DNA of 42,683 bases from a virus, in the IMG/VR virus record IMGVR_UViG_3300029620_000016, positions 1 through 42,683 of that record; one strand, given 5' to 3'. How positions within the stretch are numbered: the stretch's first letter is position 1; each line of letters begins with the position of its first letter. The notes beneath the pieces are model-generated. The model ran no database searches and was not told the DNA's origin. It was given only the letters and a program-made list of their open reading frames with translations. Below, in pieces: positions 10,163 to 35,416 of the stretch. Position numbers and translations under genes: made by a program.

Positions 10163-10178
10163 TTTTTAAGATTTTTGA

Positions 10179-10237: not shown

Positions 10238-10257
10238 GCTAAAAGTGTTATATTTTG

Positions 10258-18580: not shown

Positions 18581-18640
18581 ATTTAAGTATAGCCACTTCC
18601 TTTTGATTTGATATTCATATTTCCTCCTTTCTAGTATCAA

Positions 18641-19868: not shown

Positions 19869-19988
19869 TTATCTCCTTAATTCAACAATTAAACCAATAA
19901 TTACAACAACTATCATAATGATGATTATACCAAATGCAATATATCGACAAATAACTGATATATTTGTCCCCTCATTCAACCAATCCAT
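19869..19988 (-). CDS. Mini-ORF, 39-aa single-pass membrane peptide (MDWLNEGTNISVICRYIAFGIIIIMIVVVIIGLIVELRR)
   Basis: Translated by hand. TAATG overlap with the SNF2 stop. Confidence 0.35.
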   Translation of the reverse strand: MDWLNEGTNISVICRYIAFGIIIIMIVVVIIGLIVELRR

Positions 19989-21235
19989 TATTTCATTTCC
20001 TCCTTAAATAAATCTTCCGTGTAGTTCTTTCGTTGATCGAGTGTGTTATAGATACTCCATTCAATACCGCTAATCAACTTATAGTAAATACATTTATCAA
20101 TAGTTCCTATTCTGTGGATTCTTTTCTTGGATTGTTCATACAACTCACTGCTCAAAGTTGGACTAAAATAGATAATCTTATTGCATTTTTGCAAGTTATG
20201 CCCCATTGAACCACTTTGATATTGGCACAGTGTAATTGAGTTAGATTCGTTCTCATAAGCTGTTTTATCCTTAACCTTGCCATTGATATAGGATATCGGT
20301 CTATCTTCAGGAATAACGCTTTTAATAGCTTCTAACTCGATATCGAAGTTGTAAAAAATAATAAGTCTATCTTGAGTGGATTCAATTAAATCTTGTAAGG
20401 CTTGAATTTTATCAGGATTATATGCACTCGATAATTGTCTTGCATATAATAACTTATTAAGAGTTGTATCACCGACTAGCTCTTTACCATCTACTTCAAC
20501 TAAAGAGTGTTTCATAAAATCTTTATAAAGTTTGGTTTCTTTAATTGCTTTAGTAATAAATCTTTGTTCTGGTAAGTCCATAACTTCATCCGTTCTTTTA
20601 AAGAAACATCCGTGTTCTCTTAATTTTCTTTTTAATCGTTCAACATTTTTATATCCAACGATTTTTGGAAATCCATCTTCAGTATAATCATATATACAGT
20701 ATTGCCTTTGAAATAGTTCTTTAGAAATACTCCATCCAAGTAAATGAATTTGAGATAATAGATTTTCATACTTTCCACCGACTGGTGTTCCAGATAATAA
20801 AATTACATTGGTAGGATTAAGTTTTTTTAGAATAAATTTTGAGCGTTTAGATGTGTCATTTTGAATTAGGGATGATTCATCTAGCATGAGTGTAAAGTCC
20901 GTTAGAGTGGCTAATTCAGGTCTACGCCATATAAGGTCATAGTTGATAATACCAACCATTCTAAATGAAGTCACATGCAAGAACATATTTAATTCATTAT
21001 TATCTGTTAAATCTAAAGTGCATATAAGTGGTTCTTTATAGTTCTCTTTGAAGTGATTCATCCAATCATCAACTTTTGACTTTTGACAGACAACTAAAAT
21101 GTTTTTGTGTAGACTTACAGCTTTTTCAGCACCTATGTAAGTTTTTCCAAGACCCATATCATAATAGTACGCCACCTTAGTTAAACCTTTAGATTCTTCA
21201 AGTACTTCAGCTTGGTGTGGCAACAATTTAATCAT
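19988..21235 (-). CDS. SNF2-family ATPase/helicase (early-region copy)
   Basis: MGLGKTYIG (motif I), LMLDESSLIQN (II), LLSGTP (III), QSKKRIHRIG (VI). Confidence 0.8.
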   Translation of the reverse strand: MIKLLPHQAEVLEESKGLTKVAYYYDMGLGKTYIGAEKAVSLHKNILVVCQKSKVDDWMNHFKENYKEPLICTLDLTDNNELNMFLHVTSFRMVGIINYDLIWRRPELATLTDFTLMLDESSLIQNDTSKRSKFILKKLNPTNVILLSGTPVGGKYENLLSQIHLLGWSISKELFQRQYCIYDYTEDGFPKIVGYKNVERLKRKLREHGCFFKRTDEVMDLPEQRFITKAIKETKLYKDFMKHSLVEVDGKELVGDTTLNKLLYARQLSSAYNPDKIQALQDLIESTQDRLIIFYNFDIELEAIKSVIPEDRPISYINGKVKDKTAYENESNSITLCQYQSGSMGHNLQKCNKIIYFSPTLSSELYEQSKKRIHRIGTIDKCIYYKLISGIEWSIYNTLDQRKNYTEDLFKEEMK

Positions 21236-21763
21236 TTAAGATACCTCCTTTTCTTTTTTACATGAAAACATTTCAGTACACTTACCATTTCTATATGCAC
21301 ATAACGGCACTAAAACATTTTTCATATAAGGTGCAACTTTAATAACCTCTTTAACTATTAGTTGCATAACTTCTCTTGTTTCCTTACTAGCTTGATTACA
21401 AAGCCGTTTATGAGCCATTTGCATTAACTCTTGAGCATTTATACTCATAATGTGTGAAACAAGCTCTCCTTGCCCTTTTTGACTACGTGGAATAGGATTA
21501 TTAGTTCTATCATCCCTTTGAGTTTGGACATAATGATTCACACCTATATGATGCCTTACAAAATGGACACTCACCCAATATGGAATCTCCATTTTTATTC
21601 CAAACCACAATTCTCTAATAGGACTATGTTCAGCTTCAACTAATTTCTCAAGCCATTCAAGTGTAGGTTCTTTTGTTGTTGATTTTCCAACAGTGTTTAA
21701 ACAACATTCTTTACACCACCACAAGTCAACATGCGATGGAAACTTTAATACTTCAACTTTCAT
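21236..21763 (-). CDS. Truncated, motif-divergent ThyX-like (flavin-dependent thymidylate synthase fold) protein
   Basis: AEHSPIRELWFGIKMEIPYWVSVHFVRHHIGVNHYVQTQRDD aligns by eye to the ThyX HGHExPxEH...RHRxxSxxxxSxRY block. NAQELMQMAHKRLCNQASKETREV aligns to ThyX NARSLMNFLNLR..AQWEI. Only 175 aa. Confidence 0.55.
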   Translation of the reverse strand: MKVEVLKFPSHVDLWWCKECCLNTVGKSTTKEPTLEWLEKLVEAEHSPIRELWFGIKMEIPYWVSVHFVRHHIGVNHYVQTQRDDRTNNPIPRSQKGQGELVSHIMSINAQELMQMAHKRLCNQASKETREVMQLIVKEVIKVAPYMKNVLVPLCAYRNGKCTEMFSCKKEKEVS

Positions 21764-22609: not shown

Positions 22610-22650
22610 TTTTAAAAATATTAGTTGGGTTTTGAAAGGTGGTGATAAAT

Positions 22651-23109
22651 ATGGAAACCAACAAAAAATTACAAGAACTAAGAAAACTCAAGGGTTATAG
22701 TCAATCAGAGCTAGCTAACTTAGTCGGTGTATCCAGAAGTGCAATTGCTGGATATGAAAATGGTTACACTCAACCAAGCTTAGAGATACTTTGCAAGTTA
22801 TGTGAGATATTCGACATATCCATAGATTCATTAATGGATTTTGACAACATAAATCCTCATAAAGATAAAGTTTTAAAAAGGTCAAATATAAGAGCTATCA
22901 AACCTAAAAAAGTACGTAAAGATAGATCAATTGAAATTAAACAAGTTGTTGTTATAGAAGTAGATAAAGTTTTAGACAATCTATATGAAGAAATGATTAA
23001 AGCCCACACAGTCAGTATCAATAAAAAAGATTTAACTAAGGAACAAAAAGAGTTTGTTTTAAAAATAATCAAAAACACTAACCAATTACTAAATGAGCTT
23101 TATGCTTAG
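22651..23109 (+). CDS. cI-like XRE-family repressor with no recognisable S24 peptidase domain
   Basis: HTH YSQSELANLVGVSRSAIAGYENG. It is divergent from the cro-like gene. Start moved to the ATG at 22651, with SD AAAGGTGGTGA. Confidence 0.75.
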   Translation: METNKKLQELRKLKGYSQSELANLVGVSRSAIAGYENGYTQPSLEILCKLCEIFDISIDSLMDFDNINPHKDKVLKRSNIRAIKPKKVRKDRSIEIKQVVVIEVDKVLDNLYEEMIKAHTVSINKKDLTKEQKEFVLKIIKNTNQLLNELYA

Positions 23110-23494: not shown

Positions 23495-24607
23495 ATGGCA
23501 CAAATATCAACACGTAAGAGAGGTAATACATGGGAGTATAGTTTTGAAATAGCATCTGTTGATGGAAAACGTAAAAGAAAATCAAAAGGTGGATTTAGAA
23601 CTAAAAAAGAATGTTTAGAAGCTGGAACTAAAGCTAAAGCTGAATATGACAGTTGTGGAACAGTTAATAATGAAACAATGATGTCAGTTAGTGACTGGTT
23701 AGATATTTGGTATAAAGATTGTATTGATAAAAGATATAAACCAGCTACTAAAGAAACTTATAACTCAGTTATTAGACAGATAAAAAGACAGTTTGGTAAT
23801 TATAGATTAGCTTCTTTAACACCACTTGCAATAAATAAATGGTTCAATGAGTTAATTGATGAAGGTTATGCTACTAGTACTGTTAGAAATGTTAGAAGAA
23901 TCTTAAATGGAGCTTTAAATTATGCATATCAAATGTGTGTTATTAAAGAGAATCCATGCTCTAGAGTTAGAATTAAAACTTCAGATTCAGAAAAATTTAA
24001 AAATACATTAATAGTTACACCTGATTTATTTGAAAAGATATTAAAAAAATTTGATACTAAAGTAACTTATTATAGAATACCATTTCTTATTGGTTGGTTC
24101 ACTGGTATGAGAGGTGGTGAAGTATTAGGTTTAACTTGGGATGATATTGATTTTGAAAATAAAACTATTCATGTATGTAAAACTCAAACATGGGCATTTA
24201 ATCAAATTCATATACATTATCCAAAGACACCAAGATCAGTACGTGATATAGCAGTTGGAGATAAGCTTATAAATGAATTAAAAGCCTGGAGAGAGGTTCA
24301 AATAGACAACGCTAATAAATTAGATATGGAAGCTCCTAAATTCATTTGTACAAGAAATAATTTAACATTATTAAGCGTTATTAATTTAAGACACCAAAGT
24401 ATGTCAGTTGCTAGAGAATTGGATATAGATTTTCACTTTCATTGTTTAAGACATACTCATGCTACACTGTTAATAAAGAATGGAGTATCTGTTAAAGAAG
24501 TTCAAGCTAGATTAGGTCATACATCTATACAAACAACATTAGATATTTATACTCATATTAAAGCATCTGAAAGTATAAAATCAGTTGATGTTTTTGAAAA
24601 TTTTTAA
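23495..24607 (+). CDS. int: Tyrosine recombinase / phage integrase
   Basis: N-terminal SAM-like domain. Catalytic residues in GMRGGEVLGLTW (R), HCLRHTHATLL (H-x-x-R) and LGHTSIQTTLDIYTH (H...Y). Confidence 0.9.
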   Translation: MAQISTRKRGNTWEYSFEIASVDGKRKRKSKGGFRTKKECLEAGTKAKAEYDSCGTVNNETMMSVSDWLDIWYKDCIDKRYKPATKETYNSVIRQIKRQFGNYRLASLTPLAINKWFNELIDEGYATSTVRNVRRILNGALNYAYQMCVIKENPCSRVRIKTSDSEKFKNTLIVTPDLFEKILKKFDTKVTYYRIPFLIGWFTGMRGGEVLGLTWDDIDFENKTIHVCKTQTWAFNQIHIHYPKTPRSVRDIAVGDKLINELKAWREVQIDNANKLDMEAPKFICTRNNLTLLSVINLRHQSMSVARELDIDFHFHCLRHTHATLLIKNGVSVKEVQARLGHTSIQTTLDIYTHIKASESIKSVDVFENF

Positions 24608-24641
24608 TGTTGACAAATGGTAGACAAATTAACAGTAATAC

Positions 24642-24694
24642 AGCCTCGAAATAAGTAATTAACTTATCCCAAGGCTTAAATTTACTTTTCTTTT
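24642..24694 (+). terminator. Weak candidate int terminator
   Basis: AGCCT..ATAAGT-aatta-ACTTAT..AGGCT interrupted hairpin (24642-24676), followed by a T-rich tract. Confidence 0.3.
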
Positions 24695-24928
24695 ATATTT
24701 AAGTAGATTAATAACTAAGAGTATTCAAGTGTAACTAAGTGTTGAAATAATAAGTGTTACAGTTAATATATTATATTCTATTATCATTATATGTATTCAT
24801 TATTAACTTGCTGATTGTTGACAAAATGTTGACACTATGATGTGTAACATATTACATTTTGTTAGCAGTCAGCTCTTTTTTATTTTAATTTTAATTATCA
24901 GAAAATTAAAAATATTTTGAAAATGTTA

Positions 24929-24957
24929 TTGACACTGACATTTTAAAGAGCTAAAAT
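24929..24957 (+). promoter_or_regulatory. Near-consensus sigma-70-type promoter of the plus-strand island
   Basis: TTGACA (24929-24934), exactly 17 nt, TAAAAT (24952-24957). It lies 28 nt upstream of the first island ATG and its AAAGGAGG SD. Confidence 0.65.
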
Positions 24958-24985
24958 ATCGGTGTAATCAAAAGGAGGTTACAAA

Positions 24986-25600
24986 ATGACAACATTATTA
25001 GTAAATTTCACTGAAAGCGAAAAACAAGGAAGAAGATTTATTTATACCGATTACAAAGATGTGGTGGTATATAAGGAAAAAGAAAATGATAAAACTGTAT
25101 TTGTTAAAGAAGTTAATCATAGAAAAAATTTATCATCTTTAAATATTAGAATTGAATTAGATGGAAAAAGAACTAAAGAAGAATTATTAAAAGCTATTAA
25201 AAGAAGAACCCAAAAATATGAAAGAGAACAAAAAGCTAAAGAAACAATGATAAAAAACGATTTCAAAAAAGCTTTAAATATTACTAAATTGTCTAAAAAA
25301 TATGAACAATTATTAAGTATCTATGAAAGAATTTATAACGAAGAAAATCATAATGGAATAATTAATATTCTTTCTTCTTTTAAAAAAATTAACAAATCGC
25401 CTTATTCTTCATCGTTTTATGATAGTGATGATATTGGTTGGGATTCTAAACCTGAAGGCTCATTAAGATTGTCCGACCATTGGAACTTTTACTCTTGGGG
25501 AGAACAACACTGTTGCTTAGATAGTACTAAAGAATATACTCGAAAATGGTTATTATGCCAATATAATAACGGTGTTTATCACGTAGTTAAAGAACTTTAG
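24986..25600 (+). CDS. Hypothetical protein (204 aa) with a Lys-rich helical middle and a Trp/Cys/His-rich C-terminal domain
   Basis: Strong SD (AAAGGAGG). C-terminal LRLSDHWNFYSWGEQHCCLDSTKEYTRKWLLCQY. No family recognised. Confidence 0.55.
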   Translation: MTTLLVNFTESEKQGRRFIYTDYKDVVVYKEKENDKTVFVKEVNHRKNLSSLNIRIELDGKRTKEELLKAIKRRTQKYEREQKAKETMIKNDFKKALNITKLSKKYEQLLSIYERIYNEENHNGIINILSSFKKINKSPYSSSFYDSDDIGWDSKPEGSLRLSDHWNFYSWGEQHCCLDSTKEYTRKWLLCQYNNGVYHVVKEL

Positions 25601-25618
25601 TAGAAAGGAGAAAATAAA

Positions 25619-25888
25619 ATGACAACTAAAGAATTTATGACTTTACCTTCAAACTCTGATAAAACTTTTTTTAAAAGTCATGTCACGGCTGTTGAAACTT
25701 TGAATTTATTAGAGAAAAAAGGAATCGAAAACATTAAAATTTATGATTATTTCATGGATTTTATTTATGAAGGTAAAATTAGAGAAGCGTATCGCTTTTT
25801 AAACGATATGTATTTGGATGATGAAACGAAAGGATGTATTGTTGGTTGTTTTAAAAATACCAACGCTTCAATTTATATAGGTATTTAA
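25619..25888 (+). CDS. Hypothetical protein (89 aa)
   Basis: SD GAAAGGAG. Island operon. Confidence 0.5.
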   Translation: MTTKEFMTLPSNSDKTFFKSHVTAVETLNLLEKKGIENIKIYDYFMDFIYEGKIREAYRFLNDMYLDDETKGCIVGCFKNTNASIYIGI

Positions 25889-25890
25889 AA

Positions 25891-26100
25891 ATGTATTACG
25901 ATAATCTTGGAAAACTTTTATTAAATCTCATTTGCTATTATAAATTAGCTGATGGAGAATTAATCATAATTGAAACTAAAGAAGAAACTTACTTAGAAAA
26001 GACAATTGTTAAAGCCGTAGAGCGTTGTGCTGGTTTATACTTGTTTGATTGCCCTTGTAAAGTGGTAGTTGATAAAAATATTTGGATTAAAATTTTATAA
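25891..26100 (+). CDS. Hypothetical protein (69 aa)
   Basis: Starts 2 nt after the upstream stop. No clear SD. Confidence 0.45.
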   Translation: MYYDNLGKLLLNLICYYKLADGELIIIETKEETYLEKTIVKAVERCAGLYLFDCPCKVVVDKNIWIKIL

Positions 26101-26112
26101 AGAAGATGCGAT

Positions 26113-26502
26113 ATGTGGAAAAATATTCAAATTAACAAACAAAATATTAAAGCTGAAACTATGAAAGCAGTATTAATCCAGATGCCACACAATTCAAATT
26201 ACGATGGTTTCAGTTTCTGGCATCCTTCAAAATTAGTAAGAACTGGCTACAATTCAAACGCTTTAAGTATTGGTTATAATGATGATTTTACTTTTAAATT
26301 AATTAAGCAGGGTAAAGGTAAATATAATTCAAGAGATATTATAGCTGAAGAAGTAATAGATGTTGAAGAATTTGAAGAAGCTTTTGGAGTAATGAATGAA
26401 AATATTACTGCCCCTCATACAAAAAATATTTATGAAACTCATAAACCAGCTCCACTGGAAGTAAAAGAAGTTTCAGTATTGGATGAATTAAAAGATGAAT
26501 AA
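26113..26502 (+). CDS. Hypothetical protein (129 aa)
   Basis: Its end overlaps the SNF2 start by 8 nt. Motif AVLIQMPHNS..FSFWHPSKLV. No family recognised. Confidence 0.5.
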   Translation: MWKNIQINKQNIKAETMKAVLIQMPHNSNYDGFSFWHPSKLVRTGYNSNALSIGYNDDFTFKLIKQGKGKYNSRDIIAEEVIDVEEFEEAFGVMNENITAPHTKNIYETHKPAPLEVKEVSVLDELKDE

Positions 26503-27709
26503 TCAAGAAATTGCCTTTGAGAAACTATCTAAGTTAAAAGTCGGTGCTTTGTTCATGGAAATGGGCACTGGTAAAACAAAAGTTGCACTTGATTTGATAG
26601 CTTCTAAAAAAGATAAAGTTAATTACATTCTTTGGATTTGCCCATTTTCAATTAAACAAGAAATCGAACAAGAACGCCTAAAATGGCATCCTGAGCTAAA
26701 AATAGACATTATAGGTGTTGAAACCATTTCACAAAGTAGTAAAGAATACTTAAGAGTTTTCAACAAAGTAATTGAATCAAAATCATTCATTGTAGTGGAT
26801 GAAAGTCTTAAAATTAAGAACATGAGTGCCAAAAGAACTAAGCGGATACTTAAGCTTGGAAGCTATGCCAAGTACAAGCTTATCTTAAATGGTACACCTC
26901 TATCAAAAAATATCCTTGATTTATACCCTCAAATGGAATTTCTCTCCCCAAAAATACTCAATATGTCTATTACTCAATTCCGAAATCAGTATTGCGAATA
27001 TTACCTTCAAGGAAGACTTAAAAACAAGGTTAAAAAACAATATAACATTGAACATCTAGTTTCACTTATAAAGCCCTATATATTTGATAGTAAACTAGAT
27101 CTTGGCAAGGATAAAACTTATCACAAAATAAATTACTCAATTGAAGACTTGGAAGAATATGAAAATATTAAACATAACTTCCTTGGATTTGATAATGATA
27201 TGGCATTCTTCTCTTTAGTTACACTGCTCCAGAAGCATTACTGCACTCAAAAAAGTAGACTTGAGCTAATAAGAAAAACAATAGATTCAATCGATGGACA
27301 AGTGATAGTATTTGTTAAATATCTGGATAGTATCCCTAGTGAAGAAACTCATAAGATTATTGGTGAAATGAACGATTCTAAAAGAGATATTATCATCCAG
27401 GGATTTAGAGAAGGTAAATTTAAAACACTGTACATAACTTATGGTTGTGGTTCATTCGGATTAAATTTGCAAAATTGCCGAAACATTATATTTGCTGATC
27501 ATACTTTTGACTATTCTCAACGAATTCAAGCTGAAGCTAGGATATTTAGAATCGGTCAAGAATATGATGTAAATTACTATGATATGAATTGTAATTGTGG
27601 ATTGGACAAACTTATCCGTGGGTGCTTAAATAAAAAAGTTAAATTACTTGATGAAGTTAAAGAAGAAATTGAAAAGAAAGGAGTTGAAGAATGGCTAAAA
27701 ACTATTTAG
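26495..27709 (+). CDS. Minimal SNF2-family ATPase (island copy)
   Basis: MGTGKTKVA (I), IVVDESLKIKN (II), ILNGTP (III), QAEARIFRIGQ (VI). 404 aa with no accessory domains. Confidence 0.75.
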   Translation: MNNQEIAFEKLSKLKVGALFMEMGTGKTKVALDLIASKKDKVNYILWICPFSIKQEIEQERLKWHPELKIDIIGVETISQSSKEYLRVFNKVIESKSFIVVDESLKIKNMSAKRTKRILKLGSYAKYKLILNGTPLSKNILDLYPQMEFLSPKILNMSITQFRNQYCEYYLQGRLKNKVKKQYNIEHLVSLIKPYIFDSKLDLGKDKTYHKINYSIEDLEEYENIKHNFLGFDNDMAFFSLVTLLQKHYCTQKSRLELIRKTIDSIDGQVIVFVKYLDSIPSEETHKIIGEMNDSKRDIIIQGFREGKFKTLYITYGCGSFGLNLQNCRNIIFADHTFDYSQRIQAEARIFRIGQEYDVNYYDMNCNCGLDKLIRGCLNKKVKLLDEVKEEIEKKGVEEWLKTI

Positions 27710-28965
27710 ATAAAAATGTATATCAGTTAGCACTAGAACGTATAGCTTATTTATTTAATGAGTTTGACAATGTTCTAGTTGCTTTTAGCGGTGGAAAAGA
27801 TAGTAGTGTATGCCTTGAGCTATGTTATGATTATGCTAAGGAAAATGGCTTATTAAATAAATTGTCAATGTATCATCTTGACTATGAAGCTCAATACCAA
27901 ATGACAACTGATTTTGTGGATGAAACATTTAAAAGATATCCGAATATTAAAAGATATTGGCTTTGTTTACCGATTAAAGCTCAATGTTGTACTAGTATGA
28001 CAGCTGGATACTGGATTCCATGGGAAGAATCTAAAAAAGCTATCTGGGTTAGGAAAATGCCTACATATGATTATGTTATCAATCAACATAATTGCCAATT
28101 TAATTACCATGGTTTTGATTATGATGTTCAAGATAGATTTTGTGATTGGTTTAAATCAAAACACGGTAAAACAGCCGTTGTAATAGGAATAAGAACGGAT
28201 GAATCATTAAACCGATTTAGGGCAATAGCAAGTGACCATGCTATTAAATATAAAGGCAAATCATGGATTAATGGAAATAAAGCTTACCCTATTTATGATT
28301 GGCACGTTCAAGATGATTGGATATATTTTGGAAAGTTTGCTAAGCGATACAATAAGTTATATGATTTGTACTATCAAGCTGGGCTAAGCGTTGACCAAAT
28401 GAGAGTAGCAAGTCCATTTAATGATTGCGCATCAAACACTTTAAAACTCTATAAGGTTATTGATCCAAATAACTGGGGAAAGATGATTGGTAGAGTTAAC
28501 GGTGTTAATTTTACCGCTATTTATGGTGGAACTATTGCTATGGGATGGAATAAAATAACTAAACCTAAAGATTTCACATGGAAGCAATATTGCTATTTTT
28601 TGCTCAACACTTTGGATGAAAAAACAAAGCAACATTACTTAAACAAATTAAACACTTCAATTAAGTTTTGGAAAGATAAAGGCGGTTGTTTAAGCGATGA
28701 AACAATTAAAGAATTGCAAAAAGACAACATTAATTATATAGATAAAGGCTATACCAGTAATTATAGTACCAATAAAAAAGTAATTGCATTTAATGACTAT
28801 TTAGATGATACAAATGTAACCAATTTTAAAGAATTACCAACATATAAACGTATGTGTATTTGTATAATTAAAAATGACTATTATTGTAAATATATGGGCT
28901 TTAGCCAAACCAAAAATGAAATAGAGAAAAGAAAGAGAGCTATAGAAAAATATGCAAAATTATAA
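27691..28965 (+). CDS. PP-loop ATP-pyrophosphatase of the PAPS-reductase / DndC / IbrA-like family
   Basis: PP-loop VAFSGGKDSSV near the N-terminus. IGIRTDES. Long C-terminal extension, as in IbrA-type proteins. Overlaps the SNF2 gene by 19 nt. Confidence 0.8.
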   Translation: MAKNYLDKNVYQLALERIAYLFNEFDNVLVAFSGGKDSSVCLELCYDYAKENGLLNKLSMYHLDYEAQYQMTTDFVDETFKRYPNIKRYWLCLPIKAQCCTSMTAGYWIPWEESKKAIWVRKMPTYDYVINQHNCQFNYHGFDYDVQDRFCDWFKSKHGKTAVVIGIRTDESLNRFRAIASDHAIKYKGKSWINGNKAYPIYDWHVQDDWIYFGKFAKRYNKLYDLYYQAGLSVDQMRVASPFNDCASNTLKLYKVIDPNNWGKMIGRVNGVNFTAIYGGTIAMGWNKITKPKDFTWKQYCYFLLNTLDEKTKQHYLNKLNTSIKFWKDKGGCLSDETIKELQKDNINYIDKGYTSNYSTNKKVIAFNDYLDDTNVTNFKELPTYKRMCICIIKNDYYCKYMGFSQTKNEIEKRKRAIEKYAKL

Positions 28966-29464
28966 ATCACCAGTTTACAATGTTAAAGCTGTACCAATAG
29001 AAAAAATTCAAGCAAATGCTTATAACCCCAATCATGTCGCCGTGCCAGAAATGAAGCTTCTTTATAAGTCAATTCTTGAAGATGGATATACTATGCCAAT
29101 AGTGTGTTATTATCTTAAAGATCAAGATAAATATGAAATTGTAGATGGATTCCATAGATATAGAACAATGCTGGAACACAAGGATATTTACGAACGTGAA
29201 AATGGATGTCTTCCAGTAGTTGTAATTGATAAAGATTTATCCAATAGAATGGCTTCAACCATCCGCCATAATAGAGCTAGAGGTTCACATTCGATTGAAT
29301 TAATGACTAATATAGTTGCTGATTTAGTTAAGAGTGGAATGTCGGATGCATGGATTATGAAAAATATAGGTATGGATGCTGATGAGCTTCTGAGGCTGAA
29401 GCAGATAAGCGGATTGGCAGAGTTGTTCAAAGACAAGGACTTCAGCAAGGGATGGGATAAATAG
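28952..29464 (+). CDS. ParB/sulfiredoxin-fold protein, IbrB/DndB-like
   Basis: IEKIQANAYNPN, VDGFHRYRT and STIRHNRARGSH motifs. 170 aa. Overlaps the PP-loop gene by 14 nt. Confidence 0.75.
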   Translation: MQNYKSPVYNVKAVPIEKIQANAYNPNHVAVPEMKLLYKSILEDGYTMPIVCYYLKDQDKYEIVDGFHRYRTMLEHKDIYERENGCLPVVVIDKDLSNRMASTIRHNRARGSHSIELMTNIVADLVKSGMSDAWIMKNIGMDADELLRLKQISGLAELFKDKDFSKGWDK

Positions 29465-29683
29465 ATGAAAACAACTAAACGGCAACAAAAGTTTCTAGAT
29501 AAGCTATATGCAAACTATACTGACACAAATAACATATACCCTAAGAGTATGAGCGATAGCGAGTTTATAAAACTTATCACGGATTATTTTCTAGGCGAAG
29601 ACTACTATATTGCTAGCCCTGTGTCACAAGGACAAGCAAATGTGATTATTGCTATAGAAATTATAAGGAGTAATAGACACTGA
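29465..29683 (+). CDS. Hypothetical protein (72 aa), last gene of the island
   Basis: Starts immediately after the ParB-like stop and ends at a TGA just before the terminator. Confidence 0.5.
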   Translation: MKTTKRQQKFLDKLYANYTDTNNIYPKSMSDSEFIKLITDYFLGEDYYIASPVSQGQANVIIAIEIIRSNRH

Positions 29684-29696
29684 CCACTGAGAAAAT

Positions 29697-29730
29697 AAGC
29701 CCTAAAACAAACGTTCTAGGGCTTTTCTCT
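29697..29730 (+). terminator. Rho-independent terminator of the island operon
   Basis: AAGCCCTA-N12-TAGGGCTT stem (29697-29724), followed by TTCTCT. Confidence 0.6.
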
Positions 29731-29865: not shown

Positions 29866-29890
29866 CTAAAAAGTCCAGGGCTTAACCTGG
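29866..29890 (-). terminator. Terminator of the late operon
   Basis: Minus strand: TCCAGG-ttaagc-CCTGGA followed by CTTTTTA. An alternative overlapping hairpin is GGACTTTTT-N9-AAAAAGTCC (29849-29875). Confidence 0.5.
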
Positions 29891-29939
29891 ACTATAAGGA
29901 GAAAATACGACAAATAACTTATATACACATTATACTCTT

Positions 29940-30251
29940 TTATTTTTTAGATTCAATATTTTTAGTTTGCTTTTTAGCGTATTCTTCAATTTTATCAAAA
30001 GCCTTTTGAACCAACTTTTCAATAAAATCTCTGGTGAATATCATTTTATACGGAGCTGGAACTAAGGAGTAGAGATCATCAACTACACGCTTCATTTTCT
30101 CTTTTCCATCAACTCCAGCTATTTCAGCATCATTAATACTACCACTTATACTGGATTCTAATTTTGCTTTAATTTTAAAATAATAAGTAAATAGTGTTAT
30201 GATAACACCTAATACGACTAATACGATATTAATTATTTCACTTGTATTCAT
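29940..30251 (-). CDS. Putative holin (LL-H-like, single N-terminal TM)
   Basis: N-terminal TM IINIVLVVLGVIITLFTYYF. GKEKMKRVVDDL pattern. Last gene of the late operon, next to the XhlA-like gene. Confidence 0.55.
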   Translation of the reverse strand: MNTSEIINIVLVVLGVIITLFTYYFKIKAKLESSISGSINDAEIAGVDGKEKMKRVVDDLYSLVPAPYKMIFTRDFIEKLVQKAFDKIEEYAKKQTKNIESKK

Positions 30252-30252
30252 T

Positions 30253-30561
30253 TTATAACCCCCATCTGCTTAATAAATAACCTAACAATGCTCCTACAAG
30301 CGTTGTTATAATAATGCTAACTACTTGCTCCCAACGTTTACTTGGTTTGCTTTCCAGCTCGGTTAATCTTTTACCTTGCTCTTCTTGTTTTTTATTCATT
30401 GTGTTCATATTAATAGCTAATTCTTTAACACTCATAGCAAGATCATTAATAGCTTTAGATTGCTCTTCAACTTTATCCATTCTGTGTTTAAGGGATTTAA
30501 TGTTATCTTCATGGTTTGTTAATGTTTTAGTTATTTTAATTTCATCTATATTATTTTCCAT
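30253..30561 (-). CDS. xhlA: XhlA-like lysis-associated membrane protein
   Basis: Coiled-coil N-terminus plus a C-terminal TM VVSIIITTLVGALLGYLL, which is the architecture of PBSX XhlA. Confidence 0.6.
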   Translation of the reverse strand: MENNIDEIKITKTLTNHEDNIKSLKHRMDKVEEQSKAINDLAMSVKELAINMNTMNKKQEEQGKRLTELESKPSKRWEQVVSIIITTLVGALLGYLLSRWGL

Positions 30562-30571
30562 AATCGTTCCT

Positions 30572-31225
30572 CTAAGTTGTAATCGTAATTAATTCAAGCG
30601 GATAGTTTGAGAAATATCCCCATTCATTAGTTGCGACTTGATCAGCAACAGCTCTAAAGTATTCACTATCAGAAGTACCTATTGTACCTTGATTTGGGAA
30701 TGCGTTTAAAACTAACTTGATGCTATTTCCACTTATATTATAAGATGCTCTAAATGTTTTTGCACTACCATTTGTATCGATTACTCCAGTTTGTGACTCA
30801 TCGTTGTATCTGTTGAATACATGACTTGACACAATACACATATTATTAGGAAGTTTAGTAATGCTAAAGTAACCATCATTTGTATTGCTGAAGCATACTA
30901 GAGAAGTAAAAGTTACACCTACACTGCCCATGGCTAAAGTGACTTCATTTGGATAAACTAGTTCTCCATCATCATTTTCAGTTGGCTCAGGAACACTAAC
31001 ACTAAATCCACTAAAACTACCAGCTGTTATAGATTCACTAATTACTGGTATATCACCACCACTACCACCAGTTGGAATAGATAAGATACATTGTGCTAAA
31101 TTGGCTGAATTCTTATTAGTTGGTATAGAAGTTGCTTTTTTGGTAACACAAGCGTTGTATGCATTACTAATATTTGATTTAAGGCTATTTATAGCTGTTT
31201 CTAGACTTGTTAAATCGAAACTCAT
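30572..31225 (-). CDS. Hypothetical tail-distal protein (217 aa)
   Basis: Follows Tal. The N-terminal LETAINSLKSNISNAYN...ILSIPTGGSGG pattern resembles the fibre-protein N-termini elsewhere in this genome. Confidence 0.45.
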   Translation of the reverse strand: MSFDLTSLETAINSLKSNISNAYNACVTKKATSIPTNKNSANLAQCILSIPTGGSGGDIPVISESITAGSFSGFSVSVPEPTENDDGELVYPNEVTLAMGSVGVTFTSLVCFSNTNDGYFSITKLPNNMCIVSSHVFNRYNDESQTGVIDTNGSAKTFRASYNISGNSIKLVLNAFPNQGTIGTSDSEYFRAVADQVATNEWGYFSNYPLELITITT

Positions 31226-31229: not shown

Positions 31230-32657
31230 TTATACTCCTTTAATCAAATTTGCCAGTGTATTGAATGCACTTTGAACATCACTCTTTAATGCGTATTTTG
31301 ACAAATCAGTATCACTACCAGTTCCTTTTTGGCGGTTAAAGAAATCTCTAGTCTTGTTGTCAAACTCATTATTTTTTACATAATCTTTTAACTTATTATC
31401 ATAGTCCTTAAATTTGTTATCATAATCTTTAAAGTTATTATTATAATCATTAAACTTTTTGTCGTAATCATTGAAAGTTTTATCTGATTCATCAATTTTT
31501 TTAGAAGCTGAACTATTGATATCTATTGATATTCTGTCTTCATCACCTAATACGATTGTAGTTTTGTCTGGCTGATTTAAGTTAATAGTCATTTTTTGAA
31601 CGATCATATAATTATCATCCAACTTGTGAACTGAACTATAAACTCTTACTTTTTGTCCTACTCGGAATGATTCGATATTAACATCCAACAAGTGTAAATC
31701 AAAGGCATTTAATTCTATGTTTTTGGCTAACTTTTTATAATAGTTAAGTTGTTCTTTAGCGTTTTTAACTAATTGCTGAGTGTCTTTTTCGACTCCATCC
31801 CACACTAATGCTTTAAATATCTTGCCATATTTTTTGACTGCTTCTTCATCATAAATATAATCAGTATCTTTTTTATGCTTAATAGTTCCATCAGTAAAAT
31901 CTTCAACCTCTGTAATATCCAGCTTGTACTCAACTTTCTCTTCATCCTTACCATCAGTTTTGACCGTTGCACCTAAAGGAATAATAGCTGTGGCTATTTC
32001 TTCCCCTTTAATAGTTCTGGTTAAAGTTAATAAGTTTTTGCCAAATTGAATTATTTGGTTATTAACTGATAATTGTTTAGAAGTGAGATAATCTAGATAC
32101 TTAATATCGTCATGGATTCTTGGAATTAAATAGGTGTGATTAAATGTATTAATTAAATCATCATTTAAAGTTGCCAGTGTATCATCATAAGAAGATATTT
32201 TATAGAATGTTTCAGAAGAATCAACCTCAGTTACAGTGCCTACATGGAACTTTTTATAATCATCTACTTGAGAGTTATGTATATTAATAATATCAGTTAG
32301 ATAGTCTTTAATTTTAGTATTACCTTTTAGTGAATATGATTTGGCTCTTTGAACTGAATCAAGTAAGTATCCTAACATACCTTCACAAGAGATAGTTTTA
32401 AAATTATAGATATCAGTTTCATCATTAAGCACTCTTCCACAAAATATTACATCACCATCTTGGACTAAATAAACCTCCGATAAATGCTTTTTTATATCAT
32501 TAAAATATGGATGAGTGGGGCTAATTTTAAAGGTTAATGAACCAGTTTTATTAAGTTCTACCTCGCATACAGCGTTTGCAACTTTTAAATTATTACTCCT
32601 GGAATCGTGAATTACAAGCCGTTCACCATCTCTATTATCGATGATTATTTGATACAT
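31230..32657 (-). CDS. Tail-associated (Tal-like) minor structural protein
   Basis: Directly after Dit. The N-terminal domain pattern is MYQIIIDNRDGERLVIHDS...LTFKISPTHPYF. The C-terminus has heptad repeats. Confidence 0.75.
   Translation of the reverse strand: MYQIIIDNRDGERLVIHDSRSNNLKVANAVCEVELNKTGSLTFKISPTHPYFNDIKKHLSEVYLVQDGDVIFCGRVLNDETDIYNFKTISCEGMLGYLLDSVQRAKSYSLKGNTKIKDYLTDIINIHNSQVDDYKKFHVGTVTEVDSSETFYKISSYDDTLATLNDDLINTFNHTYLIPRIHDDIKYLDYLTSKQLSVNNQIIQFGKNLLTLTRTIKGEEIATAIIPLGATVKTDGKDEEKVEYKLDITEVEDFTDGTIKHKKDTDYIYDEEAVKKYGKIFKALVWDGVEKDTQQLVKNAKEQLNYYKKLAKNIELNAFDLHLLDVNIESFRVGQKVRVYSSVHKLDDNYMIVQKMTINLNQPDKTTIVLGDEDRISIDINSSASKKIDESDKTFNDYDKKFNDYNNNFKDYDNKFKDYDNKLKDYVKNNEFDNKTRDFFNRQKGTGSDTDLSKYALKSDVQSAFNTLANLIKGV
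31350..31481 (-). repeat. In-frame 21-bp tandem repeats encoding (K/N)F(N/K)DYD(N/K) heptads
   Basis: The protein reads TFNDYDK KFNDYNN NFKDYDN KFKDYDN KLKDYVK NNEFDNK. Confidence 0.8.
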
Positions 32658-33301
32658 TATAATTCACCCCCTTGGTAGACGATTGTTGCAACTCCACTAC
32701 CTTTGAAGTGCAAAGTGTTTACTCCTTCTTTTATGAATAAATCAGGAATTTCATTCTCTCTATTAGCTTTTAAATTTCTTTCTTCACCATTAACAACTAT
32801 GGTCATATCATTGGTAACTTTAATTATTGGATTAACAGTCATTCGTTTTCCATGAATTTTAACATATGTGTCACCGCTAATATTAGCATTACTAATGCAA
32901 TTAGCGCTCGTATATTTGAACGGATCACAATCACATTGAATAACTATTTTACCAACTCTTTTATCACTTACCCATTGATTTATTTGGCATCTTCCAACAT
33001 AATAGTAACTTTCATCACTATCTAATGTGATTTTTAATTTTTTTCCATGAAGATAATTAGCTATTTCAGTAACTAAATCGTTAAATTCTTCATAGTTGGT
33101 TGTCATGGTAAATTCAAACTCAAGAATTCTATTGTTAAATTTAATTTCACCGCATAGAACTTCTGAGGTATCAATTACCCCATCTGCTCCTTCAACATCT
33201 ACACTTGAAGTTTTGGGGGTCGGGAGTCCCAACGCTTTATTAGTTAGGACTAATCCCCAATCATCATATGTATGTTTAATTCCAAAAGTTATTCCATTCA
33301 T
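32657..33301 (-). CDS. Distal tail protein (Dit)
   Basis: Directly after the tape measure. N-terminus MNGITFGIKHTYDDWGLVL...VDVEGADGVIDTSE...FNNRILEFEF is typical of siphovirus Dit. Confidence 0.8.
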   Translation of the reverse strand: MNGITFGIKHTYDDWGLVLTNKALGLPTPKTSSVDVEGADGVIDTSEVLCGEIKFNNRILEFEFTMTTNYEEFNDLVTEIANYLHGKKLKITLDSDESYYYVGRCQINQWVSDKRVGKIVIQCDCDPFKYTSANCISNANISGDTYVKIHGKRMTVNPIIKVTNDMTIVVNGEERNLKANRENEIPDLFIKEGVNTLHFKGSGVATIVYQGGEL

Positions 33302-33304
33302 AAC

Positions 33305-35416
33305 TTACCCCCTAAATCTACTTTTTCCATAGGCTAAGTCTCCTAGTTTAGTGTCCATTTTTGAAGCCATAGCACCGACTAATTGACCGCTATCTAGCAC
33401 TATTTGTTGGTTCATATTGTCTTTTATATCTGGTAAATAAGTACTTAATAAGTTGATTAATTTATCAAAGTAGTAACTTAACTCATCTACTTCATTTTTA
33501 ACGGCTTCAGATACATACTCTTGAAGTGTTGAAATTGGGGTAATTGCTTCAGCTCCAGCTTCTCCACCAACCATAGCATTGCCAGTTGTTGGATTATACC
33601 CAAAGGCAGTTGGCTTGTTCATAATACCACCCTTAGCATACCATTCAACACCTATTCTTGGCATACCTTGGCTAAACCAGTCAACTGGATTTAATGATCC
33701 ATCAACTGTGAAATGTGGTAGTTTGAATATTGATCTAAACCAATTACAGAAGTCATTCCATAAGTTTGAGATATTATCAATTACATTACCAAAGAAGTTT
33801 CTAATTGAATCAAAGTGTTTAGCAATTTGTTTAACTGCTGTTCCAAAAGGATTGACAATAAATCCAATGATAGTTTTCCAATTGTTCTTAAAGAAGCCAA
33901 TTACATCTTTAAATTTGGATTTAATACCATCTAGTACGCCACCCATTAGCTTGAATCCAGCTTTTGTAAGTTCTCTAATTCCATTTAATAAGCCCTTTAC
34001 TAATGCGCCAATAATTTCTATATCAGCTTTTAATATATTAGGTATAGCTTTGATAATACCCCCAATTAAAGCTAATATGATTTTAAATCCAACATCAATA
34101 ATAACTCCTAAATTATTAACTATTGTATTTACAAGAGCTTCAATTATTTTCGGTACATAATCAATTAATTTAGGTAATGCCTTTACTAAGCCTTCAACTA
34201 AAGCCAATATTAATTGTAATGATACATTTATGATTAAACCTAAATTATTCATCAAAGTATCCACAATTTTAATGACAACATCTACAATTATTGGTACTAA
34301 AGTTGGTAAAGCTTCAACCAATCCTTGTTCCAATCCAACTATTAATTGAATACCAGCGTCTATAATCAATGGTAGATTTTCTATTAATGCTTGAGTAACT
34401 GTTAATATACATTCAACCGCTAAAGGCACAAACTCTGGTAATAACTTAACTATTGCGTCAATTACTTTAGTGATCAACTCTGTAAAAGTTTGAATAAGTG
34501 TAGGTAGCATTTGACTAATTGCATCAATCAAAGCATCCATAACCGTTGGAAGTACTGCCACCATGTTATTAATAACTGGTATAACGTTTTGGACTGCTCC
34601 ATTAATACCTTTAGCCAAGTTATCTACTAACTTTTTCATATCAGCATCAGGATTGCCTAAGCCAGCTATAAAGTTTTGCCATGATGCGCTTAATGAGTTG
34701 AATGAACCTTCGATAGTTTCTCCAGCTTCTTTTGCGGTTGTGCCTGTAATACCTAAATCTTGTTGAATAACGTGGATGGCTTGATAAACATCATCCAAGT
34801 TGGATATATCATACTTGATACCTGTTAATTTTTCGGCATCAGCAAGTAAACGCTCCATCTCGGTTTTAGTACCACCATAACCAAGTTTTAAGTTATCTAA
34901 CATGGTATAGTTTTGCTTTGAAAAACCTTGATAAGCGTTTTGGATATCTTGCATATGAGTACCCATTTTGTTAGCGTTATCTGCCATATCACGGATAGCC
35001 ATATCCGCACTATCACACGCTTTTTCAGTATCACCATCAAGGGCTTGTAATAATGAAGCACTAAAGCTAGTAACTTGCTCCATGTAAGTATTGGCATCAA
35101 TACCAGCTGTTGTATAAGCGTTATTAGCGTTATCAATGACCTTTTGAGCTGAGTCTTTGAATAAAGTTTCAATACCACCGATTGATTGCTGTAAACGCCC
35201 ATATGAAGATGAAACGTTTTTAACTAATCCAACTGCTCCAGTAGCGACCGCTCCAGTAGCAACTAATACTCCCTTGCCAACTGTTTTAGCAATTGAGCCT
35301 ATTTTACTAAGTTTACTTGAAGTATTTTCGGCTTCATCACTTACATCTGTTAATTCTTTTTTAGATTTTGCAACGCCCACTAAAGCAAGCGTTCCGAATA
35401 TTTTAAATAATTCCAT
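33305..35416 (-). CDS. Tape measure protein
   Basis: 703 aa, long helical/hydrophobic repeats, located after the chaperone pair. Confidence 0.85.
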   Translation of the reverse strand: MELFKIFGTLALVGVAKSKKELTDVSDEAENTSSKLSKIGSIAKTVGKGVLVATGAVATGAVGLVKNVSSSYGRLQQSIGGIETLFKDSAQKVIDNANNAYTTAGIDANTYMEQVTSFSASLLQALDGDTEKACDSADMAIRDMADNANKMGTHMQDIQNAYQGFSKQNYTMLDNLKLGYGGTKTEMERLLADAEKLTGIKYDISNLDDVYQAIHVIQQDLGITGTTAKEAGETIEGSFNSLSASWQNFIAGLGNPDADMKKLVDNLAKGINGAVQNVIPVINNMVAVLPTVMDALIDAISQMLPTLIQTFTELITKVIDAIVKLLPEFVPLAVECILTVTQALIENLPLIIDAGIQLIVGLEQGLVEALPTLVPIIVDVVIKIVDTLMNNLGLIINVSLQLILALVEGLVKALPKLIDYVPKIIEALVNTIVNNLGVIIDVGFKIILALIGGIIKAIPNILKADIEIIGALVKGLLNGIRELTKAGFKLMGGVLDGIKSKFKDVIGFFKNNWKTIIGFIVNPFGTAVKQIAKHFDSIRNFFGNVIDNISNLWNDFCNWFRSIFKLPHFTVDGSLNPVDWFSQGMPRIGVEWYAKGGIMNKPTAFGYNPTTGNAMVGGEAGAEAITPISTLQEYVSEAVKNEVDELSYYFDKLINLLSTYLPDIKDNMNQQIVLDSGQLVGAMASKMDTKLGDLAYGKSRFRG

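Follow-up and report, generated by a model that had tools for sequence, protein, structure and literature searches.

The IbrA and IbrB proteins of Escherichia coli carry the database label 'co-activator of prophage gene expression', and Sandt et al. are said to have reported in 2002 that IbrAB activates the expression of the prophage eib genes in E. coli. Several described systems contain similar components. The Dnd system acts on DNA, with DndC as its PP-loop ATP pyrophosphatase of the PAPS-reductase lineage (PAPS, phosphoadenosine phosphosulfate) and DndB as a ParB-superfamily partner that has a DGxHR-type motif (PMC10853773). In the Dpd system, the tRNA-guanine transglycosylase (TGT) DpdA works with the ParB-like ATPase DpdB, and the SNF2-like DpdE belongs to the restriction arm (PMC12839542). 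In both systems, a ParB-like protein (DndB or DpdB) accompanies the enzyme that modifies DNA (DndC or DpdA) (PMC10853773, PMC12839542). BREX type 4 and DISARM pair a DNA-modifying enzyme with large ATPases or SNF2 proteins, BrxP being a protein with a PAPS-reductase domain (PMC12839542, PMC12914056). Fusions of ParB and methyltransferase domains in phages and plasmids also bring a ParB/Srx domain together with a DNA-modifying enzyme in mobile elements, and these are thought to have anti-defence roles (PMC12704722). The locus described here is in a viral DNA of 42,683 nucleotides, IMG/VR record IMGVR_UViG_3300029620_000016, which was analysed over its full length and is referred to as the window. 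It is an island of eight plus-strand open reading frames (ORFs) at 24929-29730, which includes genes for an IbrA, an IbrB and an SNF2-family ATPase.

It is highly probable that this island is a mosaic phage accessory operon, in which a four-gene core (p129, SNF2, IbrA and IbrB) has been joined by exchangeable cargo, namely p204, p89, p69 and a gene of the Tad8 family. The ORF calls were checked, and all eight ORFs were found where a preliminary description of the sequence had placed them. In order, they are separated by gaps of 18, 2 and 12 nt, overlaps of 8, 19 and 14 nt and a final gap of 0 nt; the overlaps and the final junction agree with that description, as do the motifs GTGKT, DESLKIKN, LNGTP, QAEARIFRIGQ, AFSGGKDSSV, DGFHR and RHNRARG, all of which are legible in the translations. 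The suggestion that the eight ORFs are one self-contained system does not stand, because just p129, SNF2, IbrA and IbrB are conserved together and the others are indels or cargo.

IbrA, the third component of the core (424 aa, 27691-28965, plus strand), is a PP-loop enzyme. Its Pfam matches, to DUF3440 (PF11922, 6.1e-87) and PAPS_reduct (PF01507, 3e-13), are above the gathering scores and show an N-terminal PAPS-reductase-like ATP pyrophosphatase domain followed by a C-terminal DUF3440 of about 190 aa. It also matches phrog_2302 at 1.4e-106. No solved structure was found for IbrA by sequence search. The AlphaFold2 model has a mean pLDDT of 78.6, with values over 90 across most of the N-terminal domain, and its first Foldseek matches are the FAD synthase PAPS domain, APS and PAPS reductases, CysD and FMNAT, followed by NcsA, TilS and LarE. 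These matches align over approximately 220-300 columns, which is roughly the size of the PP-loop domain at the N-terminus, thus the PDB explains nothing of the DUF3440 region. The Pfam domains, the IbrA homology and the Foldseek neighbours all support the earlier assignment of the 424-aa protein to the PP-loop/PAPS-reductase type. The mean identity over the homologues is 56%, and in 60 of them the FS.GKDS motif is conserved, as are C92 (100%), C389 (98%) and C99 (87%). IbrA was rejected as a CysH or PAPS reductase, with a score of 22.9 against a cut-off of 165.1 for TIGR00434 and 17.3 against 254.2 for TIGR02057.

IbrB, the fourth component (170 aa, 28952-29464, plus strand), has a ParB_N match in Pfam above the gathering score (1.2e-07) and matches phrog_2159 at 2.2e-84. 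It contains a DGxHR motif, the RHNRARG motif and a conserved C-terminal helical region. The ParB_N match and the IbrB homology confirm that the 170-aa protein is of the ParB/Srx type, as had been proposed from its motifs. It is the most conserved protein of the cassette, with a mean identity of 77% over 57 homologues and 70-85% identity across phages of Bacillota, Fusobacteria and Bacteroidota, and its family has 2,055 representatives at 50% identity (E <= 1e-3). Among solved structures, sequence searches with IbrB gave weak Noc/Spo0J matches only. One IbrB homologue, P0345, has an HTH_23 match, and the conserved C-terminal region of IbrB is helix-turn-helix (HTH)-like. IbrB was rejected as a partition ParB, with a TIGR00180 score of 23 against a cut-off of 58.45 and no ParA in the island. 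The search for a parS-like site by k-mer sharing in 51 non-redundant loci gave coding-sequence conservation only, with no palindromic non-coding motif common to these loci.

Some IbrB homologues are interrupted. In P0325 and P0351, an intein of the LAGLIDADG type is located exactly in the conserved DGY|TQP motif. The inteins have a Cys at the N-junction, a LAGFLDGEG block and HN|T at the C-junction, and P0345 has a Pfam match to LAGLIDADG_2. Another homologue, P0247, is a fused tandem IbrB-IbrB. A search for Rosetta-stone fusions of IbrB was not informative with regard to enzymes, the long homologues being either intein-containing or tandem IbrB.

The E. coli IbrA and IbrB belong to the same two-protein family as those of the window. 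The window IbrA is 31% identical to E. coli IbrA over its full length (E 6e-71), and the window IbrB is 48% identical to E. coli IbrB, also over its full length (E 6e-50); the E. coli partner is labelled 'IbrB-like domain-containing protein' in RefSeq. The two E. coli genes are overlapping neighbours and have the gene order of the window. With its PAPS_reduct and DUF3440 domains, the full-length homology and an adjacent pair of genes overlapping by 14 nt, the window pair is a member of the IbrA/IbrB family. The E. coli loci that were inspected are degenerate islands with no SNF2 and no p129-family gene, whereas the window has the four-gene, SNF2-linked form. This form is an undescribed version of a known, biochemically uncharacterised family, of which the window is one more member, distinguished by its Tad8 cassette. 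No publication describing or characterising phage IbrAB or the SNF2-IbrAB linkage was found in full-text literature searches.

The SNF2 of the island, the second core component (404 aa, 26495-27709, plus strand), is a minimal SNF2-family ATPase/translocase. Its Pfam matches to SNF2-rel_dom (PF00176, 8.8e-15) and Helicase_C (PF00271, 1.1e-10) are above the gathering scores, and it is placed in the SNF2 family by the presence of both the N-lobe and the Helicase_C lobe with motifs I, II, III and VI intact. Across 32 homologues, the GxGKT, DES..IKN, LNGTP and Q...RI.R.GQ motifs are conserved to at least 95%. The closest solved relative is the Sulfolobus Rad54-like protein 1z63 (2.2e-19), and phrog_62, labelled 'DNA helicase', is also matched. 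The first core component, p129 (129 aa, 26113-26502, plus strand), is a small β-rich protein that matches a single PHROG family, phrog_27058 (3.4e-32), which is of unknown function. A total of 160 p129 homologues were found, in which two subfamilies are remote homologues of one another (hhalign probability 96%, E 2e-9). The AlphaFold2 model of p129 predicts eight strands and a helix (pLDDT 78.7); it has no neighbour in the PDB (best E 0.2), and its matches in BFVD are uncharacterised phage proteins only. Mean identity across homologues is 46% for SNF2 and 44% for p129. Weak Pfam matches to NrS-1 primase-polymerase domains, to the head domain in p129 (E 0.027) and to HBD in p69 (E 0.063), were treated as chance, and a precomputed PF22761 match in a few p129 homologues is probably also due to chance.

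The linkage of these genes was counted in about 160 loci. From the IbrA side, the survey took in 50 loci of viral or phage origin and 19 from genomes, with IbrA and IbrB adjacent in 49 of the former and all of the latter; the sole exception is a truncated contig. From the SNF2 side, a profile search for the clade retrieved at least 556 viral stretches. The SNF2-clade set of 82 loci is made up of 80 that were kept from the profile scan and two from a single-sequence scan, with 29-95% identity to the window SNF2. IbrA is present in 78 of these 82 loci and IbrB in 75. Of 82 non-redundant loci with enough sequence ahead of SNF2, 55 have a p129-family gene immediately upstream of it. Among non-redundant loci, SNF2-IbrA-IbrB is the order in 79, IbrA-IbrB-SNF2 and SNF2-IbrB-IbrA are seen in 4 each, and in the Fusobacterium phage phiFN37 the order is IbrA-IbrB-p129-SNF2. 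It is clear that the trio of SNF2, PP-loop and ParB proteins singled out in the preliminary description has very strong synteny elsewhere, since IbrA is present in 59 of the 60 SNF2-clade loci having at least 2 kb of flank on both sides and the genes occur in several orders.

Two main architectures are found. The first, p129-like - SNF2 - IbrA - IbrB, is carried by phages and prophages of Bacillota and of some other groups, and is seen in the GenBank phages phiAQ113, CR28, D4276 and CHPC877 and in Streptococcus equinus phages. The second is IbrA-IbrB without SNF2, often inside a replication module with a PD-(D/E)XK nuclease, DUF6291 and a Toprim-DnaB primase-helicase; in some of these SNF2-less loci a PD-(D/E)XK nuclease comes after IbrB. 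Approximately half of the IbrAB loci have no SNF2. The cassette is missing from many close relatives, and in Streptococcus thermophilus phages one and the same locus holds it either with SNF2 or without. Judged from these gene neighbourhoods, SNF2 and p129 are a dedicated accessory of IbrAB, which for its part does not always need them. No additional conserved neighbours, such as sulfur donors, nucleases or methylases, were found beyond the p129 family in 113 non-redundant loci, and the other recurrent small neighbouring proteins have no Pfam match.

Two variants of the pair were observed. In six non-redundant loci, a GNAT acetyltransferase gene is present between IbrA and IbrB (L016 8286-8666, L067, L086, L141, L159 7746-8183 and L160), and its product may assist the pathway as an accessory enzyme, or the gene may be mere cargo. 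In four IMG/VR contigs (L007-L010, approximately 7001-11050 in locus coordinates), there are tandem paralogous pairs in the order IbrA1-IbrB1-IbrB2-c2-IbrA2, which suggests that the specificities of the pairs are non-redundant.

The mosaic nature of the island is evident from comparison with two sister phages, the IMG/VR contigs L004 and L005, which are colinear with the window at a DNA identity of 86-94%. Both lack window positions 25607-26110, containing p89 (89 aa, 25619-25888, plus strand) and p69 (69 aa, 25891-26100, plus strand), as an exact gene-sized indel, and no homologues of these small cargo ORFs were found in more than 150 related loci. Both also lack positions 29465-29689, the Tad8-family ORF and 6 nt, such that the IbrB stop codon abuts the terminator region. 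The first ORF of the island, p204 (204 aa, 24986-25600, plus strand), is a variable cargo gene of unknown function with homologues in few loci: L004 and L005 (79%), L002 (36%), L015 (38%) and L126. None of p204, p89 and p69 has a family match in Pfam, PHROG, NCBIfam or PADLOC. The p204 slot is directly upstream of the p129-SNF2 pair, and this same slot is filled by AcrIIA5 in the phages D4276 and CHPC877. By this position p204, which is not homologous to AcrIIA5, is a candidate anti-defence gene.

The final ORF (72 aa, 29465-29683, plus strand) comes after the IbrB stop codon and ahead of the terminator. Its Pfam match is to PF25189, 'Type II Thoeris inhibitor Tad8'; the score is 66.8 bits, with a cut-off of 27 (E 1.4e-18), and the alignment takes in positions 2-60 of a 76-position profile. 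The five non-self homologues and the Joint Genome Institute (JGI) gene call for the window all carry PF25189. As cited in PMC13243611, Yirmiya et al. (2025, Cell) describe Tad3-Tad8 as phage proteins that bind Thoeris TIR or effector proteins. The 72-aa ORF is likewise a small phage protein, like other Tad proteins, but the likeness is one of sequence-family membership alone and Thoeris inhibition is putative here. No solved structure was found for it by sequence. No Tad8 homologue was found in the more than 150 IbrAB or SNF2 loci examined; the homologues are in the IbrAB-free loci L051-L056, as early genes of other phages near dUTPase and ArdA. The 72-aa protein is therefore not interlocked with the system, as had been supposed, since it belongs to the Tad8 family, is missing in the sisters and occurs elsewhere without IbrAB. 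As the gene is mobile and absent as a gene-sized indel, the 0-nt junction with IbrB is best seen as a cassette-insertion scar and is no sign of shared function. The ORFs behind IbrB in three other phages are small and not Tad8-like, and these unrelated ORFs support the reading of a variable slot at this position. By its family membership, the 72-aa ORF is predicted to be an independently mobile anti-defence cargo gene, and the window is thus a case from nature in which a Tad8-family (anti-Thoeris) gene was captured as a unit of gene size. The JGI gene call for this ORF (P0121, 29465-29698) is 77 aa long, with the TGA stop codon read as Trp (...RSNRHWPLRK). It appears to be an artefact of calling genes with code 4 on a contig of low GC content, because the homologues end at the position of the TGA and the rest of the window is clean with code 11.

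The core was also compared with the described DNA modification and defence systems. DndC models are the only matches of IbrA in the PADLOC defence library, at 5e-8 and 30 bits, and these are partial; identification as DndC was rejected, with the equivalog TIGR03183 scoring 23 bits against a cut-off of 290.4. No match to DndA, DndD or DndE was found among the eight island proteins using PADLOC, NCBIfam and Pfam, and there is no such cluster of neighbours in 113 loci. The window IbrA differs from Dnd in having DUF3440 and apparently in having no conserved Fe-S cysteine triad, and the cassette differs in being phage-borne with an SNF2 partner. The resemblance to Dnd does not amount to membership, given the score of the DndC model far below the cut-off and the lack of DndA, DndD and DndE. 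The same is true of BREX type 4, also mentioned in the preliminary description, as IbrA has no BREX-associated match in PADLOC and the island lacks PglZ, BrxC and BrxL. BREX type 4 and DISARM are host defence systems, whereas the cassette is carried by phages, including virulent ones.

For the island SNF2, the PADLOC DpdE models are among the best matches (2.3e-16), although these are partial and cover generic SNF2 motifs only; there are also weak matches to BrxHI (3.6e-4) and BrxHII (6.3e-3). SNF2 was rejected as the DISARM protein DrmD (equivalog 42.3 against a cut-off of 950) and as the Zorya protein ZorD (39.6 against 1500). No partner genes of DISARM, Zorya or Dpd are present, and the PADLOC matches are restricted to the generic SNF2 motifs of much longer profiles. 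In contrast to Dpd, the candidate modification enzyme is a PP-loop protein and there is no TGT and no preQ0 pathway in the window. In the ParB-methyltransferase fusions the two functions are fused and the chemistry is methylation, whereas in the cassette the proteins are separate and the chemistry is uncharacterised.

The phages that carry the cassette indicate who may benefit from it. In the S. thermophilus phage D4276, acrIIA5 (D4276_028) is followed by p129-like (029), SNF2 (030), IbrA (031) and IbrB (032) genes, with acrIIA5 abutting 029 (cassette region L080 2484-6265), and the arrangement is identical in CHPC877 (L003 2984-6768). D4276 is a virulent phage, and its acrIIA5 is a validated anti-CRISPR (Hynes et al., PMC6060171). 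In phage D1811, the gene downstream of the same conserved gene is acrIIA6, so that the same position holds an anti-CRISPR in a second phage (PMC6060171). With AcrIIA5 upstream in D4276 and Tad8 downstream here, the cassette is flanked by anti-defence genes in two unrelated phages. In phiFN37 (L078 / L081, 71.5-78.6 kb of the record), the cassette is followed by one gene on the opposite strand and then by genes for a ParB-like protein, a DpdA-like TGT and a queuosine-precursor transporter, and there is a third ParB-like gene a few kb beyond. From the annotation of the record, we take the set of ParB-like protein, TGT and transporter to be the make-up of a 7-deazaguanine DNA-modification module. 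As far as can be judged from gene content, these contexts favour a DNA-directed function that would serve the phage during infection, against a defence that protects the host. The preliminary description had offered either DNA modification or defence. A nucleic-acid-directed function remains the most plausible part of this, but defence of the lysogen is weakened by the retention of the cassette in virulent phages, where it is next to acrIIA5.

It is a real possibility, although not an established one, that the cassette serves counter-defence by covalently modifying phage DNA, in a process that uses ATP and is assisted by the translocase, each of the steps being drawn from domains and contexts. 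PP-loop enzymes adenylate a substrate oxygen and the AMP is then displaced by a nucleophile. The PAPS-reductase-clade relatives of IbrA identified with Foldseek handle adenylyl-phosphate or adenylyl-sulfate anhydrides. SNF2 enzymes translocate on double-stranded DNA and classically strip or reposition DNA-bound proteins, and ParB/Srx proteins are nucleoside triphosphate (NTP)-dependent DNA binders, nickases or phosphotransferases. In the proposed mechanism, IbrB, as an NTP-binding ParB/Srx protein with a conserved C-terminal DNA-binding-like region, would engage DNA and recruit or activate IbrA. IbrA would then use its PP-loop and ATP to adenylate a target oxygen, which may be that of a backbone phosphate or of a base carbonyl or carboxyl, and a nucleophile would displace the adenylate. 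C92 and C389 would fit a persulfide relay, making thiolation the leading guess, with other substitutions possible. SNF2 and p129 would translocate on double-stranded DNA, either spreading the modification along the genome or clearing bound proteins to give access, and the modified phage DNA would evade nucleases of the host or other defences that sense DNA. The temperate phage of the window would have the cassette at the moron locus with its own promoter and with the Tad8 gene added. If the Tad8 gene has been picked up by the cassette operon, one transcription unit would carry two unrelated counter-defence functions. The tandem IbrAB paralogues, the inteins of IbrB and the fast-diverging p129 and SNF2 may be taken as signatures of an arms race that agree with such a role. 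An action on DNA is also favoured by the conserved catalytic motifs (SGGKDS in IbrA; GxGKT, DES and motif VI in SNF2; DGxHR and RHNRARG in IbrB), by the replication modules that surround SNF2-less IbrAB, and by the precedents of ParB-like partners for DNA-modifying enzymes, to which the ParB-methyltransferase fusion of this same phage can be added.

It is only tentatively suggested that p129-SNF2-IbrA-IbrB represents an unrecognised class of translocase-coupled DNA modification in phages, in which adenylation by the PP-loop enzyme and substitution, possibly placing sulfur or a different group on a base or the backbone, would be guided by the ParB/Srx protein and spread by SNF2, giving broad protection from restriction and from other defences that sense DNA. 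Several points weigh against modification of phage DNA. To our knowledge, no DNA modification has been demonstrated for any IbrAB, and the sole known IbrAB phenotype, the activation of eib in E. coli, is regulatory. No conserved neighbouring gene for a sulfur donor (cysteine desulfurase or sulfur carrier) or for a co-substrate enzyme was found in the 113 non-redundant loci. Only two cysteines of IbrA are near-invariant, hence there is no apparent signature of three to four Cys for an Fe-S cluster as in DndC or NcsA. The substrates of the nearest structural relatives of IbrA are small molecules (FMN, sulfate and PAPS), and since about half of the IbrAB loci have no SNF2, the chemistry does not depend on translocation. 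The argument from anti-defence neighbours is one of guilt by association and draws on two phage lineages.

The regulatory phenotype leads to the explanation that survives best after DNA modification, namely that IbrAB and SNF2 activate phage or prophage transcription through anti-silencing, displacing repressors or nucleoid proteins or modifying a regulator. The 'co-activator' label and eib activation are the only known phenotype of E. coli IbrAB, to which the window proteins are true homologues. The cassette is beside cI/int here and beside cro/antirepressor genes in the dairy phages, the stripping or repositioning of DNA-bound proteins is what SNF2 enzymes do, and the conserved C-terminal region of IbrB, being HTH-like, would suit a regulator. 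Yet such a role is considered unlikely. An intact PP-loop adenylating site and two conserved cysteines would be superfluous for simple activation, and there is no non-coding target motif common to the 51 non-redundant loci. In addition, IbrB retains its 70-85% identity across phages of Bacillota, Fusobacteria and Bacteroidota, the hosts of which differ in their repressors and nucleoid proteins, and the cassette also occurs within replication modules.

This last location is consistent with a role in replication or recombination, in which IbrB would nick or bind DNA, IbrA would adenylate DNA ends or a cofactor, and SNF2 would remodel forks or carry out branch migration. Inteins favour replication and repair proteins, and IbrB is interrupted by inteins. 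The SNF2-less IbrAB genes between those for a PD-(D/E)XK nuclease, DUF6291 and a Toprim-DnaB primase-helicase, the match of SNF2 to the phrog_62 'DNA helicase' and the fact that ParB/Srx proteins can be nickases (PMC5512222) all fit with this. An accessory function in replication is nevertheless improbable, because the window already has a full set of such genes in its second SNF2, D5-like primase-helicase and PD-(D/E)XK + AAA_24 protein. Furthermore, the cassette itself is accessory, missing in many close relatives and found with or without SNF2 at one S. thermophilus locus, and its post-lysis or lysogeny-replacement location and variable cargo are typical of accessory genes, not of the replication core.

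An accessory location also raises prophage defence or superinfection exclusion, in which the cassette would be expressed in the lysogen to mark or attack incoming DNA. This is rather improbable in light of the strictly virulent D4276 and CHPC877, which never form lysogens and have kept the cassette (PMC6060171). The moron position, the near-consensus promoter of its own and the orientation opposite to the late genes would suit lysogenic expression, and PAPS-reductase-type enzymes are part of Dnd and BREX-4 (PMC12839542, PMC10853773). The SNF2 has weak partial matches to hidden Markov models of ZorD, DpdE and DrmD, but the equivalog scores for DrmD, ZorD and DndC are 10-40 times below their cut-offs, and IbrA and IbrB have no PADLOC system match beyond the weak similarity to DndC. 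Likewise, a PD-(D/E)XK nuclease follows IbrB in some SNF2-less loci, but the architecture with SNF2 has no conserved nuclease or toxin effector, and the genes that share an operon with the cassette, AcrIIA5 and Tad8, are for anti-defence, not defence. Finally, the idea of an auxiliary metabolic gene, a 'PAPS reductase' boosting the assimilatory sulfate reduction of the host during infection, follows the PHROGs and GenBank label 'phosphoadenosine phosphosulfate reductase; moron, auxiliary metabolic gene' and the resemblance of the IbrA fold to APS/PAPS reductases, but is scarcely credible given scores of 17-23 bits in the NCBIfam CysH/PAPS-reductase models with cut-offs of 165-254, the extra 190-aa DUF3440 domain, the lack of any other linked sulfur-assimilation genes, and an obligate ParB/Srx pairing and frequent DNA translocase that would be senseless for sulfate assimilation.

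The IbrA-type 'PAPS reductases' are very common in phage genomes, with more than 6,500 clusters at 90% identity in one word-limited search, and are usually annotated as an auxiliary gene of sulfur metabolism or as a 'co-activator of prophage gene expression'. The ParB/Srx pairing, the dedicated SNF2 clade with its small partner and the anti-defence loci recast these genes as a DNA-directed conflict module. If they do modify DNA in a new way, this would be a new route of immune evasion for phages and a possible enzymatic tool, and a widespread misannotation would be corrected. If the modification is coupled to a translocase, the existence of thousands of phage 'PAPS reductase' auxiliary metabolic genes would be explained. 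The cassette is a well-delimited and widespread candidate for a new DNA-directed counter-defence mechanism of phages, and this is testable, as it is carried by the virulent, culturable S. thermophilus phages D4276 and CHPC877, the hosts and defences of which are well characterised.

With regard to expression, a sigma-70-type promoter-like site, TTGACA-17-TAAAAT (24929-24957, plus strand), precedes the island. It matches the consensus at 11 of 12 positions and is the best in the region. Across the region, 43 promoter-like sites were found against 39 +/- 5.6 expected from shuffled sequence, which is not an enrichment. The near-consensus promoter previously reported is therefore present as a site, but it is suggestive only, as such sites are overall no commoner than in the shuffles. 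A strong Shine-Dalgarno sequence, AAAGGAGG, is located between it and the first ORF. No operator common to the cI-cro and island promoter regions was apparent, the TTGTCAA-type motif being observed 43 times against 35.5 +/- 5.8 expected.

At the other end of the island is a G+C-rich hairpin (29697-29724) with a 12-bp stem, which includes 5 G-C pairs, and a 4-nt loop. The clean terminator described for the island is thus a real hairpin, but the scanner put it on the minus strand. TTCTCTT comes next on the plus strand and the hairpin is between converging units, so that it is plausibly bidirectional, and it is probably a terminator common to the island and the converging late/lysis unit. A second hairpin (29872-29893) is nearer to the minus-strand genes.

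The non-coding spacer between the integrase stop codon and the island promoter (24608-24928) is part of approximately 380 bp behind int that contain direct and inverted repeats. The direct repeats, TGTTGACAAATGGTAGACA and TGTTGACAAAATGTTGACA, are separated by 208 nt, and the two halves of a 20-nt inverted repeat are at 24810-24829 and 24854-24873. From its position downstream of int, this spacer is probably attP and the integrase arm-site region. In that case, the island would be at the end of the prophage opposite to int, between the att site and the late genes, which is a moron locus.

The window as a whole has a G+C content of about 31% and is a temperate siphovirus-like genome with nearly all of its genes on the minus strand. 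Apart from the eight ORFs, the plus strand has just two real genes, for a cI-like HTH repressor (22639-23109) and a tyrosine integrase (23495-24607), so the island is indeed the only plus-strand block besides cI and int. To its right, on the minus strand, are a small membrane protein gene (29940-30251; phrog_15303, unknown function), an XhlA-like 'hemolysin' gene (30253-30561; phrog_937), an ORF of 217 aa with no family match (30572-31225), which may encode a novel lysin or tail component, and the genes for the tape measure, Dit and a tail protein (31230-35416). The location of the island between the integrase side and lysis genes holds in so far as this is a probable moron locus with an XhlA-like neighbour. 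No endolysin was recognised among the genes at 29940-31225, between the island and the tail genes, and the label of lysis genes is for this reason just partly verified.

Of the two other genes to which the preliminary description had drawn attention, the second SNF2 (19988-21235) is a real gene, with 25% identity to the island SNF2. The other, a separate methyltransferase (14251-15417, minus strand), does contain a methyltransferase domain but is actually a ParB_N + N6_N4_Mtase fusion (phrog_498, 2e-166). The phage therefore has two ParB/Srx-domain proteins, each coupled to a putative DNA-modifying enzyme. Further replication genes of the window encode a D5-like primase-helicase and a PD-(D/E)XK + AAA_24 protein. 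The latter is an ORF of 632 aa in the recombination module (16742-18640, minus strand) that combines a PD-(D/E)XK/Cas4-like nuclease domain and an AAA_24 (Sak4-like) ATPase domain, which is an unusual fusion unless the TTG-start ORF call joins two genes.

No near-identical DNA was found among GenBank phages, and the portal-like protein of the window gave no useful relatives. The nearest genome matches are metagenome-assembled genomes from the gut or rumen, in which the binning is mixed and probably unreliable. For an ORF of 175 aa (21236-21763, minus strand), the only match is to ThyX (Thy1) and covers the last 40 residues of that protein. The sister phages L004 and L005 lack the segment 21252-21753, which is a further gene-sized indel.

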